64,000 bases of DNA. It comes from Eledone cirrhosa (lineage: Eukaryota). Where the stretch lies: contig CAXHJY010001225.1 of NCBI GenBank assembly GCA_964016885.1, positions 38,332 through 102,331 of the forward strand, given 5' to 3'. Positions 4,785-37,505 of the stretch are shown piece after piece; position 1 is the first letter of the stretch, and every line of letters starts with the position of its first letter. Made by a program: the position numbers and the translations under genes. Below the pieces are notes generated by a model that was not told the origin of the DNA, searched no databases, and worked only from the letters and a program-made list of their open reading frames with translations.

Positions 4785-4837
<53 letters not shown>

Positions 4838-4957
4838 AAAGTTATATTTAAATTGTTGGGTTACAACTAGTAAATATTTATAACTGATATAAAAGCACTC
4901 GACAAGTATTTGGAGTATATTTACGATATTAAATAAATGGAAACTATATTTATAAAA

Positions 4958-5037
4958 CCATATTTATTTCATTATATATATTTCAGGGATATCATATTAA
5001 CAATATGCTATGCCTTCCTCAGACAAAATACAATATA
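4958..5037 (-). ncRNA. Minimal type I hammerhead ribozyme (PLE pLTR)
   Basis: tattttgt-CTGAGGA-agg...catattgttaatatg...cct-GAAA-tatata-TA-atgaaata. Confidence 0.75.
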
Positions 5038-5471
5038 AACAGTTTTATAGATAAATAGATTCGACATACCGTAACAACATCGACTTGTATTTGAAAGAGT
5101 TGAATTGGCAGTGAAAAAATTGTACACAGAGAGAAAGAAAGAGAGAAAAAAGGAAAGAAAGACAGAAAACGAAGAAAAAGAAGAAAAAGAAGAAATACAT
5201 GGAACAAAATAGAGAGATGGAAAGATAGATAAAGAGAAGAACTTCATGTAAAGAAGCAGAGAGAGATATATATATAGAGAGAGAGAGGAAATAGAGATAG
5301 ATACATATATATAGAAAACTAGGTAGTGGGACGTCCGTTGAGTAAACGTATCAATGATATATTTATTTATTTATTTATTTATTTATTTAGCTCTAGTATT
5401 AATGTAAGGGAGATATATGGAGAGAAACCAGCTGTTATATAGAGAGAAAAATTTAAAAAGCATCTTGTATA

Positions 5472-7201
5472 ATGCACGAGTTGGAAATTGAGAACAGAAC
5501 ACAACCTTTCGTGCCCAGGAAACCGAAGATCAATATGAAAGATCACAAGAGGAATTTTGAAAATGACTTGCCAGTTAGATTGATCGCACCATCAAAATCG
5601 GACCTGGGCAAATTAAGCAAAAACATTCTTGACAGGGTGATACAGCAAATTAAGAACTTGGATTGTTTATCTAACCTGAGCTTGTGGAAGGTAACTGGAG
5701 AGGTTGTTGAGTGGTTTAAGCAAATTAGATATAACAATAATAATAAGTTTATTCAACTTGATATAGCTAACTATTATTCTTCTATTACCCCTAATCTACT
5801 AAATAAGGCACTAAATTACGCATTCAAACATACTGACCTAACTAGCAATGAAATGCATATTATATTATCGGCTAGGAAAACTTTGATAGAATTTAATGAC
5901 CAACTATGGACCAGAGCAGATAGAGATAGCAATTTTGACATTACTATGGGATCATCCGACTCAGCTCAGGTAACTGACCTTGTGGGCTTATTTTTAATCA
6001 ATTCGCTACATAGGAAAATACCTGGTACTACCGGAGGTTTATATAGAGATGACATGCTTTTACTTATTGATAATAATAACTCTGAACTAAATAGAAAATG
6101 TAAACAAATTACACAATTTTTTAATTACTTTAATCTTAAAATAGAAATTGAGAACAACCATAGAATAGTCAATTTCCTAGATATAACATTAAATCTCAAC
6201 ACATGTCTTCACTATCCTTTTCACAAGTTGAATGAAAACTTAAACTATGTCAACTTTAACTCTAACCACCCCAGATCTGTCAAAAACACTATAGTAAACT
6301 CTGTTCAAAAACGTATCTCTAGGATCTCGTCGAATAGAAAGATTTTCGACGAAAAAGCCCAATACTACAATGAAACATTAGCTAGAGCAGGATATGCTGA
6401 TAAGATTGTGTACATAGATAATGATAGACAAACTAAACAAAATAACAACTATTTTAATTACGGCAACAACCTTAACAACTATAATAGAAAGCATTACAAT
6501 AATTCCAAAGGCCAAAAAAGAAATAGAACTAGGAACATAATTTGGTTTGCCCCCCTTTCTCACTAAACATTAAAACCCACATCGCTAAACTATTTTTTAA
6601 AGCTCTTGATAATCGCTTCCCTAGAACACATAGGTATCACTCAATTTTCAATAGACATACAATAAAATTAACCTACTCATCCACCAAAAATTTAGCACAA
6701 AATATTAATAGAATAAATAATAGGAACTTAAAACCTAGTGATAATAGCATAAATAATATACAAGTTAACAAATGTAACTGTAGAGATAGATCTAAATGTC
6801 CGTTAAATAACAACTGCTTAGTTAAAAATATAGTATACAATTGTAATGTTAATACTGACTCTAATTCTTTTAACTACGTCGGTTCCACATCGACGGAATT
6901 TAAACTTCGCTATAATAACCACAAGAATTCTTTCACAGATCCAAGCAAAAAATCTTCAACGGCACTATCAGGCGTACTCTGGCAACTTAAGCTAGATAAC
7001 GTTAGATATTCGACGGCTTGGAATATAGTCTCAAGAGGGATTCCTTTTAATTCATCCTCTGAGACATGTGACCTCTGCGCAGAGGAGATATTCTTTATAC
7101 TAAAATCTAAAAATTCCCTTAATCTACGGACAAATTTATTCAGTTGCTGCAAACATAGATTAAACTCAACGTTTAAATATAAATTTAAATTTAAAATGTA
7201 G
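5472..7201 (+). pseudogene. 5'-truncated PLE polyprotein: reverse transcriptase plus C-terminal GIY-YIG endonuclease, one frameshift at ~6550
   Basis: ORF 5472-6566: KFIQLDIANYYSSI, FDITMGSSDSAQVTDLVG, GGLYRDDML, VNFLDITL, SNHPRSV; ORF 6542-7201: CNC..CPL..CLVKNIVY, YVGSTSTEFKLRYNNH, CDLC..E..LN. Confidence 0.9.
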
Positions 7202-8525
7202 TATATTTAGTTTGATTTATAATTATATGGGAAACTAGCCGATAAATCTTTGATTTCTTCTTTTTATTCTTTTTATTTTTATTTTTATTTTTATTTAAAT
7301 ATTCTTCATGAAAAATTAAGCTACCCTAAAAGTTGATGCTCCAAATATTTCGAATAAACGTTACACTAGATAAACTTCTATATTAAATATAAGAACACAT
7401 GTAGACCAAATGGGCATCCTAAACTTTTTGAAATGATCTTTGCTAGATGCGATTTGATAGATAATTTTTGGCTTTATCTGTTTTTCGACTCTGATGCTTA
7501 TAATGAACTTGGCAATATATTGTCAATTAATTTTGAAGGGTTGATCTTTGTGGTTTATTTTTATTTTTATTATTGTAGTATTTTCTAATATTTTTATTTT
7601 AATATTTTTAATATGTAATATTTTTAATATGTAATATTCTTTCGTAATATTTTTTAGTTTTCTATTTTATTATTACTTATTATTATTATTGTTATTTTTT
7701 AGTTTTGTTTCTGATATATATTTTTATTAGTATATTGAAATCTGCTCTCTATTTCTGCTTGATAGATAATCTTGTAGAGTAAAGACAGGAATAGTACTAA
7801 TATTGACTCTATATATATTTGTGTGTATATATATACACATATATGTATACTTAAATATTTATACCACAATGAGAATGTTTTCCGTGAACTTAGGGTTTGC
7901 AGAGTTGATCATGTAAATTCACATAGATGTTTGTAGTTATCACATAAACATATGAATTTTTTAAAAAAACTAAACATAAGATCATTAATTTTCACACATA
8001 TTGGATACATGTCTCATTCAGGAATACTGATATTTACAATATAGTGGCTGGTTTTTATACATACTAATACCTCTACATTAAAACATAGGGTTTTTACGCC
8101 TCGCCTATGTCTGGTTATTTTTAAATTTTTCTCTATATATAACAGCTGGTTTCTCTCCATATATCTCCCTTACATTAATACTAGAGCTAAATAAATAAAT
8201 AAATAAATAAATGTATCATTGATACGTTTACTCAACGGACATCCCACTACCTAGTTTTCTATATATATGTATCTATCTCTATTTCCTCTCTCTCTCTATA
8301 TATATATCTCTCTCTGTTTCTTTACATGGAGTTCTTCTCTTTATCTATCTTTCCATCTCTCTATTTTGTTCCATGCATTTCTTCTTTTTCTTCGTTTACT
8401 GTCTTTCTTTCCTTTTTTCTCTCTTTCTTTCTCTCTGTGTACAATTTTTTCACTGCCAATTCAACTCTTTCAAATACAAGTCGATGTTGTTACGGTATGT
8501 CGAATCTATTTATCTATAAAACTGT

Positions 8526-8606
8526 TTATATTGTATTTTGTCTGAGGAAGGCATAGCATATTGTTAATATGATATCCGTGAAATATATATAATGAAATAA
8601 ATATGG
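8526..8606 (+). ncRNA. Minimal type I hammerhead ribozyme (PLE pLTR)
   Basis: CTGAGGA at 8542, GAAA at 8580, palindromic stem III tatata, stem I tattttgt/atgaaata. Confidence 0.7.
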
Positions 8607-8636
8607 TTTTATAAATATAGTTTCCATTTATTTAAT

Positions 8637-9326
<690 letters not shown>

Positions 9327-26935: not shown

Positions 26936-27810
26936 ATTGGCAGTATGCTTTGAAGCATAGAGTTACGTCTCTTTATGATCTGAGTTCAAATCCCGCCGAG
27001 GTTAACTTTTCCTTTCATCCTTACGGGTCATTAAAATAAAGTACCAGTTATGTACTGGGTTTTTGCTGGCCTTGTGCCCGAAATAGAAACAATTATTAGA
27101 CTATATTAGAGTCAAAGATATTACGGCGAAGCTTCTATTTCTATTTCAATATATATAACAACTCTCTATGTTCTGAGGTCAAATCCCACCGAGGTTGACT
27201 TTGCCTTTCATCCTTACGGGGTCGATAAAATAAAGTACCAGTAATGAACTGGGTAATTTGCTGGCCTTGTGCCTAAAGTAGAAACAAATATATATAACAA
27301 CAACAACAACAAAGACGATGACGTCGACAACAACAACAGCAACAACAAAGACGACGACAACAACAACAACAATAATAATAATGATTTCTGATTTTGGTAC
27401 AAGGCCAACACAACAACATTGGGACGGGCAAATATCGCTTAAATCGACCCCAGTGCCTACTGGTGTTACATTTTATTGATCCCGTAAAGATGAAAGGCAA
27501 AGGTAACCTTGGTGGGATTTGACCTCAGAACATAGAGAGATGTAAATATATACCACAATGCATATTGTCAGACGCTCTACCGATACTGCCAATACTAATA
27601 ATGATATGAACCAATCAGCAAAATAAACAATAATTGTACGTGACTGATTGGTTCATCATCAGTAGAGGGTTGGATGCCATGCTTTGCAGCATAGAGTTAC
27701 GGCTCTTTAGTGTGTGAGTTCAAATCCCACCGAGGTCAACTTTGCCTTTCATCCTTATGGGGTCGTTAAAATAAAGCACCAGTAATACACTCGGGTAATT
27801 GCTGGCCTTG
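26936..27810. mobile_element. Cluster of four tRNA-derived SINE copies (+26936-27097, +27168-27288, -27383-27595, +27655-27810)
   Basis: Repeated gagttcaaatccc..cgagg..aactttgcctttcatcctta.ggggtcg core. Confidence 0.8.
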
Positions 27811-27826
27811 AAATAACAATGTATAG

Positions 27827-28230
27827 ATGAATATATGTATAGTATATTTGGCAATATACCGTATGTTTAATTAAAAACATTTTGAAGACCTTCCGCTATC
27901 ATTTTTAAAGTAGTCACTATGTCACTTACTTTTTTTTTTTCGGCAAAGGAAGGGAGAGAATCTGACAGATTCTATTTCACAATCAGTTCCTGATTATTAC
28001 TTGAATTATATAAAAATGCAGCCTCTATAATTTTCGGCAAAGGCGGGGAGTACGATTCTCTAAGGATCACCAACAGTGTGAAACAGAATCTGTCAGCTTC
28101 TCCCCCTTCCTTTGCCGAAAAAAAGAAGTAAGTAACATAGTCACTACTTTCGAAATGATAGCGCAAGGTCTTCAACATGTTTTTGATTAAACATACGGTA
28201 TATTGCCAAATATACTATGCATACATTCAT
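27827..28230. mobile_element. Fold-back non-coding PLE/retrozyme-related element
   Basis: Arms 27827-27980 and 28077-28230; HHR-like motif in the right arm. Confidence 0.8.
28031..28121 (+). ncRNA. Hammerhead with mutated core (CTAAGGA)
   Basis: Stem I ttttcggcaaagg/cctttgccgaaaa, CTAAGGA at 28060, stem II cac/gtg, GAAA-cag-aat-ctg-TC. Confidence 0.65.
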
Positions 28231-28426
28231 ATATATGCATATATATATATATATATATAATAAATAAATACAATATCGGAGAAAGCTTTTTAGCGATACT
28301 GCGGCCAAATTCCAACTCACTCAACAAACATTAGGAAATAAGTGATTATATTCCCAATTATGTGTTCGGGGTGCTAACTAAAAGTATTGCGTGGAAAATT
28401 GGCTGTATTATTTCAAATGAGACATA

Positions 28427-28531: not shown

Positions 28532-28799
28532 ATATATATATATATAGTTTAGCGAGGTTTTTTATATGAAATCGTGTGTCGAAACAGATATTGTTATACT
28601 TGGGGAGGGTCATATTTGCGTAATATTGCCAGAATTAATAACAGAACACACTCACTGTTTGGTTGGTTTTCGCTTCTCGCTGTCTTTTATATCTGCGATC
28701 TAACTTACTCGGTCCTCAATGTTGCCATTGACTGACCGACGGTCAAAAATAATACAGATACAATATAGACACAAACACATATATATAGTTTACATAATT

Positions 28800-28845
28800 T
28801 ACATAAATCTTTCGTTGCACATCTGCAACATCGTCAGTGGTGCTA
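28800..28845 (-). ncRNA. Hammerhead core (weak stem I)
   Basis: CTGACGA-t-gttgca-gatg-tgcaac-GAAA-gatt-TA. Confidence 0.6.
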
Positions 28846-29365
28846 TATTCTTTGTTCCTCCTGTTGTGTTGTATGCCTACGCCATTTTTTATTCAGTCTG
28901 TCTATATATTTATTTATTTATTTGCTTGTTTGTTTATCTTATTTTATTTTGTCTTCTTTGCGCATGCGTTTGCGTGTGTGTATAGTGTTATGTGTGCTGT
29001 GTGACTAGTGTGTATAGTGTTGTGTCTGCTGGGTGGCTAGTGTGTGTTTATGTGCTTGTTGTTATTGTGCTTGTGTATGTATTTATTTATCTTATTTTAT
29101 TTTATTTTATTTACTTACTTATTTATACTTCTCTTAGGTCAGTGTTGTTTGTTTGGGTGTTGTTGTTGTTCCACTCATTCTTTCTGTTTAGCTTTGGTCT
29201 TCTAATTTCTATTTCACTGGCCTCTCTGATTTGCCTATCTGCTGGGTCATTCCTATGTTTAGATATTATTCTAATTTCTATGTTGTCTATGTTACCGTCA
29301 TGTTGTCGTCTAGCATGTTCGTATAGTACTGACCAATTTTTTTGTCCTTTTAGTTCCCCCCAGTG

Positions 29366-31155
29366 TTAGTCTATCCTTTCACCTATGCTACGAGCTGTCT
29401 CACCTATGTATGTTGTTGTCATGTTTCTGCAAGTACCCTCTGTACATCTTATGCTATAGACTACGTTTCTAGTTTTACAGTTTATCCGGGGGTTCACCTT
29501 ACATATGATACATTTCCTATTGGTACAGTGGGTTTTCTTAAAAGGGTAGGTTTTGCTGATCAGGGATTTTATGGTGGTTCCTGACTTTTCTACCACCTTT
29601 ATTTTTAAGTGGGTCTTTCTCAGGGCCTTTCTACACTGGTTAGCTAATTTCCCTCCAGGGGTGGCGTCCACAAACATGACACTCTGATATCTCTGGTTGT
29701 CGTACCATGATGTGGCCTTCCCTATCTTATGTCTAGCCCTATCTAAGCTATTCCATGATTTGCTCCTGTATAGTGGGCAAATTCCTTTCATGTCCAGTTC
29801 TATGAGGGTCTTATACTTTTCCATGGCTCCTTCGTATACTCTGACTCTGTCTCTTTGGTTGTAGCCAGAGAACTGCATGCGGTTGATGAAGTGTTGGATG
29901 TGTCCTTCCATTTCTGTTGGGTCGCACATGCTGGACACATTCTTCATCACTCGTACCAAATCTGCGATCAGAATATTAAACTTAGCACTACTGGACATTG
30001 CTGAGTGTTTGAGTATCAGGTATTTGGAGGCCATGGGCTTAGCATAGTGTGAGTGGAGAATTTGGGCTCTCTCGTCTATAGTGTTAATCCAGAGTTCTGT
30101 GTCTAATACAGGTAGTCTATTGTTAGGGTGTTTGGAAGGGAAGTCGATAGTTACAGTTATACTCTGGTGTATGGAATTAGCTATCTGCTGGATGCTTTCC
30201 ATCGTGCTACGTTCTAAATCAAACTTGTTAGTGCTCTCTAGTGGGGGTGTTCTTATAACTATATTGATATCGTCTACATAACGAGAGTACATGATGAGGT
30301 CTATGGAGCTTTCATTAAGGAGATCTTTAAGTCTCCTTTCCCACCATACCATGAAAAGGTTGGCAACATCACCAGCTATGCTGATGCCGATGGCTGCTCC
30401 CTCATTTTGGGTGTAGATTTTCTCATTGAACTTAAATATGTGGCCCTTTAGGGTAGTTTTGATACTAGCCCCTATTGCATGTGCGACCATTTTTCTTACC
30501 TGATCAGTATTTTGGGGGGTCCATATAGCTTTGGTCCACCCAATCCACTTTACTATGGGAGTCTTTTTAGCCATTGAGGTTATGGTGGGGGGTCTACCTC
30601 TTATAGGTCTACTAGGGCAGAAACATCTAAGGTCATGGCTGTCTATGTAGTCGGTGTCGTAGGTAAGTCTAAGTAGGAGGCCCAGTTCGTCTGTGTCGAC
30701 GTCGCAGAACTCCACCTCACTCTCAATGATCATCTCCACACATCTTTTCACAGCAAAATCAATGTTAATGGATGGGTACAGTGACACCACATCCATGCTG
30801 CCTATTATGCAGTTGGATAGGCTCCTGTTTTTGTTGCACTCACTGATTCTGCTGAGGAGGTCCTCTGTACTTTCACATACATCTGGGGACATCTTGATTA
30901 TGGGGCGTATAACCATTGAGAGGAAGTAGGAGATCCTGTAGTTGCTAGCTATATTAGCTCCGCATACGGGTCTTGTTGGTGGTCCTGTTGTCGGGTCGTC
31001 GACTGTCTTGTGGTCTTTGCGGAGCCCATACAAGGGTGGTATGCCATTGTTAGATGCCTGGAAGTTGTTGGCAGTGCGTCTGCTTGGCTTTAGGATGTCA
31101 GTCCACATCCTCATGTGAGCGTTGAGGATTTTTTCTCTCCCATCGTGTGGGAAAA
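29366..31155 (-). CDS. 5'-truncated PLE RT plus GIY-YIG ORF, open over ~590 codons
   Basis: PPLYGLRKDHK, RPVCGA, GSMDVVSLYPSI, GAAIG..AG..ANLFM, YSRYVDDI, LPVLD, YAKPMAS, C..C..CKTRNVVY..C..YIGETARSIGER. Confidence 0.85.
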
Positions 31156-31177
31156 AATGGCATACCACCCTTGTATG

Positions 31178-33060
31178 GGCATACCACACTTGTATGGGCT
31201 CCGCAAAGACCACAAGGCAGTCGACGACCCGACAACAGGACCACCAACAAGACCCGTATGCGGAGCTAATATAGCTAGCAACTACAGGATCTCCTACTTC
31301 CTCTCAATGGTTATACGCCCCATAATCAAGATGTCCCCAGATGTATGGGAAAGTACAGAGGACCTCCTCAGCAGAATCAGTGAGTGCAACAAAAACAGGA
31401 GCCTATCCAACTGCATAATAGGCAGCATGGATGTGGTGTCACTGTACCCATCCATTAACATTGATTTTGCTGTGAAAAGATGTGTGGAGATGATCATTGA
31501 GAGTGAGGTGGGGTTCTGTGACGTCGACACAGACGAACTGGGCCTCCTACTTAGACTTACCTACGACACCGACTACCTAGACAGCCATGACCTTAGATGT
31601 TTCTGCCCTAGTAGACATATAAGAGGTAGACCCCCACCATAACCTCAATGGCTAAAAAGACTCCCATAGGAAGGTGGATTGGGTGGACCAAAGCTATACG
31701 GACCTCCCCAAAACACTGATCAGGTAAGAAAAATGGTCGCACATGCAATAGGGGCTAGTATCAAAACTACCCTAAAGGGCCACATATTTAAGTTCAATGA
31801 GAAAATCTACACCCAAAATGAGGGAGCAGCCATCGGCGTCAGCATAGCTGGTGATGTTGCCAACCTTTTCATGGTATGGTGGGAAAGGAGACTTAAAGAT
31901 CTCCTTAATGAAAACTCCATAGACCTCATCATGTACTCTCGTTATGTAGACGATATCAATATAGTTATAAGACCACCCCCACTAGAGAGCACTAACAAGT
32001 TTGATTTAGAACGTAGTACGATGGAAAGCATCCAGCAGATAGCTAATTCCATACACCAGAGTATAACTGTAACTATCGACTTCCCTTCCAAACACCCTAA
32101 CAATAGACTACCAGTATTAGACACATAACTCTGGATTAACACTATAGACGAGAGAGCCCAAATTCTCCACTCACACTATGCTAAACCCATGGCCTCCAAA
32201 TCTCCAAATACCTGATACTCAAAAACTCAGCAATGTTCAGTAGTGCTAAGTTTAATATTCTGATCGCAGATTTGGTACGAGTGATGAAGAATGTGTCCAG
32301 CATGTGCGACCCAACAGAAATGGAAGGACACATCCAACACTTCATCAACCGCATGCAGTTCTCTGGCTACAACCAAAGAGACAGAGTCAGAGTATACGAA
32401 GGAGCCATGGAAAAGTATAAGACCCTCATAGAACTGGACATGAAAGGAATTTGCCCACTATACAGGAGCAAATCATGGAATAGCTTAGATAAGGCTAGAC
32501 ATAAGATAGGGAAGGCCACATCATGGTACGACAACCAGAGATATCAGAGTGTCATGTTTGTGGACGCCACCCCTGGAGGGAAATTAGCTAACCAGTGTAG
32601 AAAGGCCCTGAGAAAGACCCACTTAAAAATAAAGGTGGCAGAAAAGCCAGGAACCACCATAAAATCCCTGATCAGCAAAACCTACCCTTTTAAGAAAACC
32701 CACTGTACCAATAGGAAATGTATCATATGTAAGGTGAAACCTCGGATAAACTGTAAAACTAGAAACGTAGTCTATAGCATAAGATGTACAGAGGGCACTT
32801 GCAGAAACATGAAAAACAACATACATAGGTGAGACAGCTCGTAGCATAGGTGAAAGGATAGACCAACACTGGGGGGAACAAAAAGGACGAAAAAAACGGG
32901 TCAGTACTACACGAACATGCTAGACAACAACATGACGGTAACATAAACAACATAGAAATTAGAATAATATCTAAACATAGGAATGACCCAGCAGATAGGC
33001 AAATCAGAGAGGCCAGTGAAATAGAAATTAGAAGACCAAAGCTAAACAGAAAGAATGAGT
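31178..33060 (+). pseudogene. Second, frameshifted copy of the same RT/GIY-YIG ORF
   Basis: ORF pieces 31115-31642, 31679-32128 and 32233-32832 are near-identical to the minus-strand ORF. Confidence 0.9.
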
Positions 33061-33387
33061 GGAACAACAACAACACCCAAACAAACAACACTGACCTACG
33101 AGAAGTATAAATAAGTAAGTAAATAAAATAAAATAAAATAAGATAAATAAATACATACACAAGCACAATAACAACAAGCACATAAACACACACTAGCCAC
33201 CCAGCAGACACAACACTATACACACTAGTCACACAGCACACATAACACTATACACACACGCAAACGCATGCGCAAAGAAGACAAAATAAAATAAGATAAA
33301 CAAACAAGCAAATAAATAAATAAATATATAGACAGACTGAATAAAAAATGGCGTAGACATACAACACCACAGGCGGAACAAAGAATA

Positions 33388-33432
33388 TAGCACCACTGAC
33401 GATGTTGCAGATGTGCAACGAAAGATTTATGT
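33388..33432 (+). ncRNA. Hammerhead core (weak stem I)
   Basis: CTGACGA at 33396, stem II gttgca/tgcaac, GAAA at 33420. Confidence 0.6.
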
Positions 33433-33636
33433 AAATTATGTAAACTATATATATGTGTTTGTGTCTATATTGTATCTGTATTATTTTTGACCGTCGGTCA
33501 GTCAATGGCAACATTGAGGACCGAGTAAGTTAGATTGCAAATATAAAAGACAGCGAGAAGCGAAAACCAACCAAACAGTGAGTGTGTTCTGTTATTAATT
33601 CTGGCAATATTACGCAAATATGACCCTCCCCAAGTA

Positions 33637-33749
<113 letters not shown>

Positions 33750-35225: not shown

Positions 35226-35290
35226 TTTTTCCATTCTGATGATTGAAAGCAAATTTGTTTGCTTTCAAGAAACCACTGGTAAATGAAATA
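35226..35290 (+). ncRNA. Type I hammerhead ribozyme
   Basis: catt-CTGATGA-ttgaaagcaaa...tttgctttcaa-GAAA-ccactgg-TA-aatg. Confidence 0.9.
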
Positions 35291-35381: not shown

Positions 35382-36309
<928 letters not shown>

Positions 36310-36440
36310 ATAAATGCTCTGAAATAGCGATATATATGTGAAGATAGACATAGAATATTCGAAAATATTCTGTATGTTTATAATAAACATTTTGAAGACC
36401 TAATCGCTATAGAATAGAATACGTCACGTATTACAATTAG

Positions 36441-36529
36441 ATTCTCGATAAAAGCAAGGGAAGTAACCTACGCGTTTCATTCTTATTAGAAATCTTCAGG
36501 ATTACATATCCAGTGCTTTTATCGAGAAT
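36441..36529 (-). ncRNA. Retrozyme hammerhead
   Basis: Reverse complement of the motif at 36895. Confidence 0.9.
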
Positions 36530-36894
36530 GGCACAGCTAGAGACTTATAGAATACTTAGCTGTGTACAGGAACTGGTTTGAAAGAGCGGTTGCCGGTCCG
36601 GCAGAAATTAGAAATTGGAATAAATGCTCTGAAATAGCGATATATATGTGAAGATAGACATAGAATATTCGAAAATATTCTGTATGTTTATAATAAACAT
36701 TTTGAAGACCTAATCGCTATAGAATAGAATACGTCACGTACAGAATATTTTCGAATATTCTATGTCTATCTTCACATATATATCGCTATTTCAGAGCATT
36801 TATTCCAATTTCTAATTTCTGCCGGACCGGCAACCGCTCTTTCAAACCAGTTCCTGTACACAGCTAAGTATTCTATAAGTCTCTAGCTGTGCCA

Positions 36895-36982
36895 TTCTCG
36901 ATAAAAGCACTGGATATGTAATCCTGAAGATTTCTAATAAGAATGAAACGCGTAGGTTACTTCCCTTGCTTTTATCGAGAAT
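36895..36982 (+). ncRNA. Retrozyme hammerhead
   Basis: attctcgataaaagca..gtaatc-CTGAAGA(36924)-tttct-aata-agaat-GAAA-cgcg-TA(36954)-ggttac..tgcttttatcgagaat. Confidence 0.9.
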
Positions 36983-37204
36983 CTAATTGTAATACGTGAC
37001 GTATTCTATTCTATAGCGATTAGGTCTTCAAAATGTTTATTATAAACATACAGAATATTTTCGAATATTCTATGTCTATCTTCACATATATATCGCTATT
37101 TCAGAGCATTTATTCCAATTTCTAATTTCTGCCGGACCGGCAACCGCTCTTTCAAACCAGTTCCTGTACACAGCTAAGTATTCTATAAGTCTCTAGCTGT
37201 GCCA

Positions 37205-37292
37205 TTCTCGATAAAAGCACTGGATATGTAATCCTGAAGATTTCTAATAAGAATGAAACGCGTAGGTTACTTCCCTTGCTTTTATCGAGAAT
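37205..37292 (+). ncRNA. Retrozyme hammerhead
   Basis: Same motif 310 nt downstream (CTGAAGA at 37234). Confidence 0.9.
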
Positions 37293-37393
37293 CTAATTGT
37301 AATACGTGACGTATTCTATTCTATAGCGATTAGGTCTTCAAAATGTTTATTATAAACATACAGAATATTTTCGAATATTCTATGTCTATCTTC

Positions 37394-37456
<63 letters not shown>

Positions 37457-37461
37457 CATAT

Positions 37462-37505
<44 letters not shown>

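Follow-up and report, generated by a model that had tools for sequence, protein, structure and literature searches.

At positions 36304–37394 of the window, by which we mean the whole 64,000-nt stretch of DNA analyzed, lies an insertion built from a 310-nt repeat unit in two opposed arms between (TA)n tracts. We took the unit as window positions 36955–37264 and assigned unit position 1 to the first base 3′ of the GUA site. The features of the locus are as follows.

35442–36303, no strand: left (TA)n-rich target tract (TRF and sequence).
36304–36740, minus strand: minus arm of 1.41 units, 5′ end at unit position 39 and 3′ "long" end at 165, bearing a 26–35 nt tail (sequence comparison).
36463–36505, minus strand: type I hammerhead motif, expected to cleave 3′ of A36469 (sequence; sub-threshold Rfam HH9 match at 36449–36514).
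36739–36740, no strand: head-to-head junction with TA microhomology of 2 nt (sequence comparison).
36739–37394, plus strand: plus arm of 2.12 units, 5′ end at unit position 95 and 3′ "short" end at 130–139 on an (AT)4 tract (TRF and sequence).
36918–36960, plus strand: type I hammerhead, predicted cleavage after 36954 (descriptor; sub-threshold Rfam score).
36955–37264, plus strand: full cleavage-to-cleavage monomer of 310 nt, the predicted circular RNA (sequence).
37032–37071, plus strand: pair of conserved hairpins lying directly upstream of the short start (compensatory base changes among the sibling families).
37228–37270, plus strand: second plus-strand hammerhead, predicted cleavage after 37264 (sequence; sub-threshold Rfam score).
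37395–37501, no strand: right (TA)n target tract (TRF).

The unit has a GC content of 34.5%, and its longest stop-free frame, read on the circularized unit, is 59 amino acids. TRF reported the array with a period of 310 and 2.1 copies. These values place it among the tandem non-coding units (~150–450 nt, GC < 50%) of non-LTR retrozymes; the RT-GIY-YIG ORF between pLTRs that marks an autonomous PLE is absent, the insertion carrying no ORF. The 3′ end of the plus arm lies at 130, which reads as 139 if the unit's own (AT)4 is counted as common with the target. An initial annotation of this DNA had described a non-coding 310-nt unit in a 1.4-unit minus arm and a 2.1-unit plus arm that end ~130–165 nt past the cleavage site, with (TA)n at both outer ends, and each of these points agrees with our measurements (1.41 and 2.12 units, ends at 165 and 130, both adjoining (TA)n). 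The alignment of units that it proposed gave 0 mismatches among the copies. We conclude that the element is a genuine and young insertion of a non-LTR retrozyme, with the anatomy of a PLE insertion. A read-through transcript of 36304–37394 would be expected to fold as a long perfect duplex between the arms, and such a duplex could block the hammerheads and feed small-RNA silencing.

Each complete unit carries a type I hammerhead, present twice in tandem at 36954 and 37264, and the GUA sites number three (36954 and 37264 on the plus strand, 36469 on the minus strand), the last of them absent from the initial annotation. The motif consists of a 6-bp stem I, CUGAAGA, a stem II of a U.U pair and 4 bp, GAAA and a 2-bp palindromic stem III. 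A descriptor (CUGANGA, GAAA, UH, stem I of at least 6 and stem II of at least 4) matched the unit but none of 20,000 shuffled versions of it. With Rfam, HH9 scored 17.1 bits (E 0.43) on the hammerhead, below the cut-off of 52, and over the wider region false (TA)n matches dominated. Stem I stays paired in the family variants, whose main subfamilies have CUGAUGA. While the CUGAAGA/GAAA core, the palindromic stem III and the two plus-strand GUA sites of the initial annotation are present, its term "canonical" does not fit a helix II that opens with U.U instead of G10.1–C11.1, nor the HH9 score. Together, the U.U helix II and the 2-bp helix III suggest weak cleavage of the monomer. Axolotl HHR_Amex2 has the same U.U at the foot of helix II, according to the accessible text of PMC7229834 and 10.64898/2026.07.22.740005; a similar axolotl motif was 22% cleaved in an hour and 8 of 9 Xenopus hammerhead dimers showed no cleavage in vitro, as far as the available portions of those reports go. 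Another type I hammerhead-like motif, with CUGAUGA and a long stem II, lies at 35230–35289 just left of the target tract, and motifs like it are present at L032, L057 and L087.

The 310-nt repeat has inserted more than a thousand times in the 3.0-Gb genome. The exact hammerhead pattern of the window subtype yielded 2,580 matches and a looser CUGAUGA pattern 14,377, of which 99 of 100 among the matches listed belong to the window's retrozyme family. Copy number and end positions, for which the initial annotation had proposed a genome search, thus came to a total of ~17,000 hammerheads of this type and, for the end patterns of one subfamily, at least 1,173 long ends and 109 short ends, in two fixed classes. 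These copies are dispersed and lack an attached ORF; no in-line PLE ORF was seen at the 99 loci L031–L129. Unit sequence also occurred, as one 340-nt contig, in runs from other organisms (X4, X8, X10 and X9), at a depth of 10–365 compared with ~300,000 in organism A, and we read it as cross-contamination rather than horizontal transfer or expression. X23, which carries the same organism label as X9, had 0 unit reads in 1,938 million letters, which is no test by itself.

To describe the architecture of the family we used two sets of loci. The first comprised 39 other loci from the first DNA search, taken with no end filter; a search with the reverse strand returned the identical 40 candidates. 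The second comprised 60 regions around the first long-end matches on contig C1, taken blind to the second arm. Because the second set was chosen by its long end, all it can show is that the other end is never long as well, and the first set shows neither long/long nor short/short pairs. Junction counts leave out L032 and L070, and variant counts leave out L032, L070, L072, L075, L079 and L090, where junctions were complex or mis-segmented.

Of the 58 loci that could be resolved in the second set, 55 were two-armed and tail-out and three one-armed, and two further regions fell at gaps; at one of the 55, an arm measures just 19 nt. Over both sets we scored 88 junctions, and both outer ends could be classified in 83. 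All 83 paired one long end (~165–172) with one short end (~125–139). Of the remaining five, four proved to be long plus short after extension and L044 ends at 191 beside non-TA sequence. Both arms exceeded one unit in 62 of the 83 pairs. The anatomy is that of PLEs: an inverted, 5′-truncated copy adjoins the 5′ end at those 55 loci, a tail of 26–35 nt (30–40 bp in PLEs) protrudes at one end only in every classifiable pair, and the flanks show (TA)n targeting, inside which a target-site duplication is unreadable. Two distinct start positions are fixed in the family, and the arms of a pair never share one. The initial annotation had read the window locus as two RT events, and the two arms and the (TA)n at both ends agree with this; the two-armed form is the family default rather than a rarity. 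At L171–L172 (G000:C28, near 43.31–43.36 Mb), a small two-arm insertion has been amplified within a 2–4 kb tandem repeat.

We consider it probable that a borrowed PLE RT-endonuclease writes this non-coding retrozyme by two-strand target-primed reverse transcription on a monomer circle, starting at +165 and within (AT)4, and that end-joining at microhomologies completes the insertion. Within this reading, circularity, self-cleavage and the involvement of a PLE enzyme are inferred. A multimeric transcript would self-cleave, probably as paired hammerheads, and the monomer would be ligated. A PLE protein, probably a dimer, would then bind near the two hairpins, nick both (TA)n strands and copy one RNA from both DNA ends, one active site priming at +165 on ~2 paired nucleotides and its partner within (AT)4 on ~8. 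Displacing the strand ahead, both cDNAs would be extended round the circle to random stopping points, and host end-joining would link their 3′ ends. Some long arrays became longer still after insertion.

The composition of the arms bears directly on the template. Among pairs with at least one unit in both arms (six complex loci dropped), the two arms were of one haplotype in 63 of 65, with 16 haplotypes represented and a chance expectation of 0.13. In 9 of the 65 pairs, a sample-unique variant occurred in all or all but one of the units of both arms; one of these variants was later met at L265. The variant 248C is not private to the window locus, since a genome-wide search gave 60 matches at 13 loci. 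Twelve of these loci have at least two covering units, and 248C was in all units at seven (6/6, 6/6, 20/20, 13/13, 5/5, 2/2 and, at the window, 3/3), in one unit at five, and at no frequency in between. Its backgrounds number at least five, with unit lengths of 308, 310 and 311 nt, and for the 248C haplotypes of L264, L265 and L267 no second locus was found in the assembly. Minor variants occurred at 0.9 per kb, with 183 of 193 private to one arm and 10 common to both. The one-haplotype arms and the all-or-one distribution of 248C lead us to infer a one-unit stage in most insertions, with one unit, in the simplest case a ligated circle, being copied again and again.

Several loci behave differently. 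At L119 both arms switch family haplotype after the same two outer units, at L038 and L101 unit-level variants are common to the arms and in register, and at L092 a haplotype switch is confined to one arm. A plain monomer circle cannot give these patterns, so they count against the circle and call for a template of several units, a joint switch of template or conversion at a later stage. The one-circle reading of the initial annotation fits the single template haplotype and the one-unit bottleneck, while a few loci (L119, L038 and L101) point to a multimeric template or later conversion. In the main rival to our reading, PLE two-strand priming would act on a linear transcript of a genomic array, multimeric and left uncleaved, or on a multimeric circle, with a weak hammerhead and no need for monomer circles. 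We judge this rather unlikely. The in-register heterogeneity of L119, L038, L101 and L051 speaks for it, as do the weak hammerhead design, the same two-arm shape in a coding Neptune element (below), and the use of uncleaved RNA as the main in vitro substrate in the available text of PMC11167929. However, such a template does not readily give all-or-one variants on five or more backgrounds or 248C haplotypes that have no second locus in the assembly, the 10 of 193 minor variants common to both arms also stand against it, and 5′ truncation would shrink the arrays in each generation.

A second alternative is that short insertions of 1–2 units per arm were later expanded and homogenized by unequal exchange and by conversion between the inverted arms. 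L162 contains a block duplication with a period of 10 units, so long arrays do also grow after insertion; block duplications and mid-frequency variants at L162, L104 and L060, and the symmetry of some shared variants about the junction, are in keeping with expansion. As the origin of the arrays in general we find it improbable, because variants at sites covered at least six times were single in 117 cases and fixed in 218, compared with 26 intermediate and a further 25 at n−1, as in arrays born at once. Expansion would also leave the fixed long and short ends unexplained, and the window locus has no internal variation.

The 5′ ends of the arms and the joints between them provide a separate view of the reaction. 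The 5′ ends are evenly spread around the unit (p 0.31), and 5 of 176 fall within 3 nt of the cleavage site (~3.4 expected). Direct joints share at least 2 nt in 44 of 65 cases, compared with 18% in a random null, with microhomology of 1–5 nt; inserted letters, often copied from nearby, occupy 22 of the 88 joints. The 5′ ends of the two arms are mutually independent.

In LINE-1 twin priming, both target ends prime cDNA and an inverted 5′ part is joined by microhomology, the arms being adjacent, non-overlapping parts of one linear RNA. Unlike these, the arms of the window family are both copied from one and the same sequence, beginning at two fixed sites and ending independently of each other. 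An L1-type event in which the second primer blocks the first enzyme, or a second arm that is a hairpin copy of the first by self-priming (fold-back, as proposed for head-to-head PLE repeats in the accessible text of PMC3846280), is highly improbable here. The inserted letters at joints, a weak correlation between arm lengths (rho 0.25, p 0.02) and the single haplotype of the arms would suit such a scheme. However, fold-back and collision-type twin priming predict linked 5′ ends, and none were seen: offsets in phase between paired 5′ ends are evenly distributed (7, 12, 19, 17, 15 and 18, where uniformity would give ~8.5, 9, 18, 18, 18 and 18), the arm with the long end exceeds its partner in length in only 45 of 83 pairs, and the short start site draws no excess of long-arm 5′ ends (8 of 86 within 125–145, ~6 expected). 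The window-family data disfavour the self-priming scheme. As for an assembly artefact from chimeric fold-back reads, the window locus does sit on a small 102-kb contig and its junction is unbridged among the public contigs listed, but ~90 loci with the same rule and differing junctions, most on the largest contigs, further minus-to-plus joints in contigs from independent short-read runs, and two different fixed ends that such reads would not yield leave this with next to no probability.

The hairpin pair at 37032–37071 is 98% paired over 18 different sequences, and at three base pairs both partners have changed; the sequences are mutually related, so this covariation is suggestive only, and the pair is a candidate RT recognition signal. 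The comparison draws on sibling families of ~320 nt (5,732 pattern matches), which are ~75% alike over unit positions 59–235 and mostly have the same long and short ends. Members at window 27805–28237 and at L126, L128 and L130–L159 show the same two-arm, long/short layout, and by eye the sibling-family hammerhead-like cores read UUGAUAA, with U3–A8 for the usual C3–G8 and a G–C-based stem II. No ORF lies in line with 30 sibling-family loci.

The initial annotation had allowed that the unit might be only the pLTR of a longer coding PLE. We found no pLTR homology to the unit at 60 PLE loci, 30 Neptune and 30 GIY-YIG, by blastn and nhmmer, and no pLTR similarity to the unit in the masked flanks of L031–L129 and the window. 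The one-arm chimeras L054, L062 and L155 were considered as pointers to a partner and proved too inconsistent to name one. Two of these (L054:2790–3062 and L062:2500–3068) are tail-out chimeras in which the 3′ portion of an unrelated coding PLE takes the place of the opposite arm, from either a mixed-RNA event or a deletion between neighbors.

The genome does contain a young Neptune-type PLE with a 775-aa RT-GIY-YIG frame that inserts in (TA)n. Its clade name rests on a zinc-finger linker as described in the available text of PMC8557442. The hammerhead of this element has CUGAAGA, U.U and a 2-bp palindromic stem III, and its ends lie at +124 to +128 and +172 to +174. Across 20 regions, all 8 insertions with both outer ends found paired long with short, the class of L245 being assigned by eye. 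Its DNA similarity to the unit (local score 96.5, compared with 89 ± 8 for shuffled sequence) is within the shuffled range, and it shares no pLTR similarity with the unit, only hammerhead design and end geometry, so Neptune is a candidate enzyme by geometry only. Full-length copies in this family (L234–L253) have a second, overlapping upstream frame of ~476 aa, a two-frame layout that is unusual beside elements described as single-ORF.

Combining these observations, we put forward tentatively a more specific scheme that we regard as possible. A PLE dimer would place both active sites on one ribozyme-made circle at fixed points 26–35 nt apart and send two cDNAs into both strands of nicked (TA)n, which would account for the arrays; the same two-site, two-strand priming would explain why PLEs at large have an inverted arm and a one-sided tail; and the enzyme would be the 775-aa Neptune, reading RNA shape and not sequence.

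Each component of this scheme is already known separately, including retrozymes, the circle-plus-PLE proposal, the inverted copy and tail of PLEs, and two-strand, two-site priming. As described in the accessible text of PMC7229834 and 10.64898/2026.07.22.740005, metazoan non-LTR retrozymes are, like the window family, non-coding, low-GC, dispersed ~300-nt tandems with a type I hammerhead per unit and co-occurring PLEs, and copying of the retrozyme circle into tandem cDNA by a PLE RT is the proposed cycle, a proposal and not a demonstration. There the tandems are head-to-tail, whereas the two-arm inversion, the fixed paired ends and the haplotype bottleneck are those of the window family; conversely, expression and circles were shown for the published retrozymes, while those of the window family are predicted. 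The strings "inverted", "opposite" and "head-to" have 0 occurrences in the available portion of PMC7229834.

Endonuclease-positive PLEs (Neptune, Poseidon, Naiad and Hydra) are closer in anatomy. Within the accessible text of PMC8557442 and PMC3846280, they have an inverted 5′-truncated copy, partial tandems and often a one-sided tail of 30–40 bp, and the window family shares with them the inverted arm, the one-sided tail, the (TA)n preference and microhomology at the 5′ junction. Unlike those PLEs, it is without an ORF and both of its arms are multimers, of up to at least 27 units. Additionally, the tail rule is strict in the window family (83/83), while the same papers, where available, word it as "often" or "optionally". 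A purified PLE (PAc Poseidon, PMC11167929, available text) nicks and extends both strands of AT-rich DNA, initiates at two internal sites, which set the tail, and is a predicted dimer. For PAc the start sites did not differ between strands and showed no primer homology, a point against our reading; uncleaved RNA was used and the assays were without circles, in that text; the window family, in contrast, pairs the two sites one per arm and has its short site on an (AT)4 tract.

The initial annotation had known of no description of the bidirectional form. For PLEs the inverted arm and one-sided tail are published; for retrozymes, no description of two-armed insertions, strict start-site pairing or a genomic one-unit bottleneck was found in the literature searched, mostly main texts of open-access papers. 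The origin of the tandem and inverted ends of PLEs and of their tail is stated to be open in the accessible text of PMC8557442. The 310-nt family makes this question and the copying of retrozyme circles, two open mechanistic questions, testable, as it offers more than a thousand young records of the reaction, which obey a strict end rule, stop at random and carry mutations that are fixed in the two arms alike. Because a 310-nt substrate, two start sites, covarying hairpins and an intact candidate enzyme are named, the existing in vitro PLE assay is directly applicable.

The window contains other PLE copies, whose proteins Pfam barely detects. A coding PLE at 4836–8640 and ~44811–47410 resembles the C-terminal-endonuclease type and is tail-out in (TA)n; its left end is, by eye, ~95 nt longer than its right, so the tail can far exceed 30–40 bp. 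Another coding PLE at 28548–33641 has two opposed arms with unequal ends, a 645-aa frame at 29366–31303 on the minus strand and a broken copy on the plus strand. Truncated PLE fragments lie at 50485–51257 and 58312–59250, the latter Neptune-like and flanked by (CA)n, not (TA)n.
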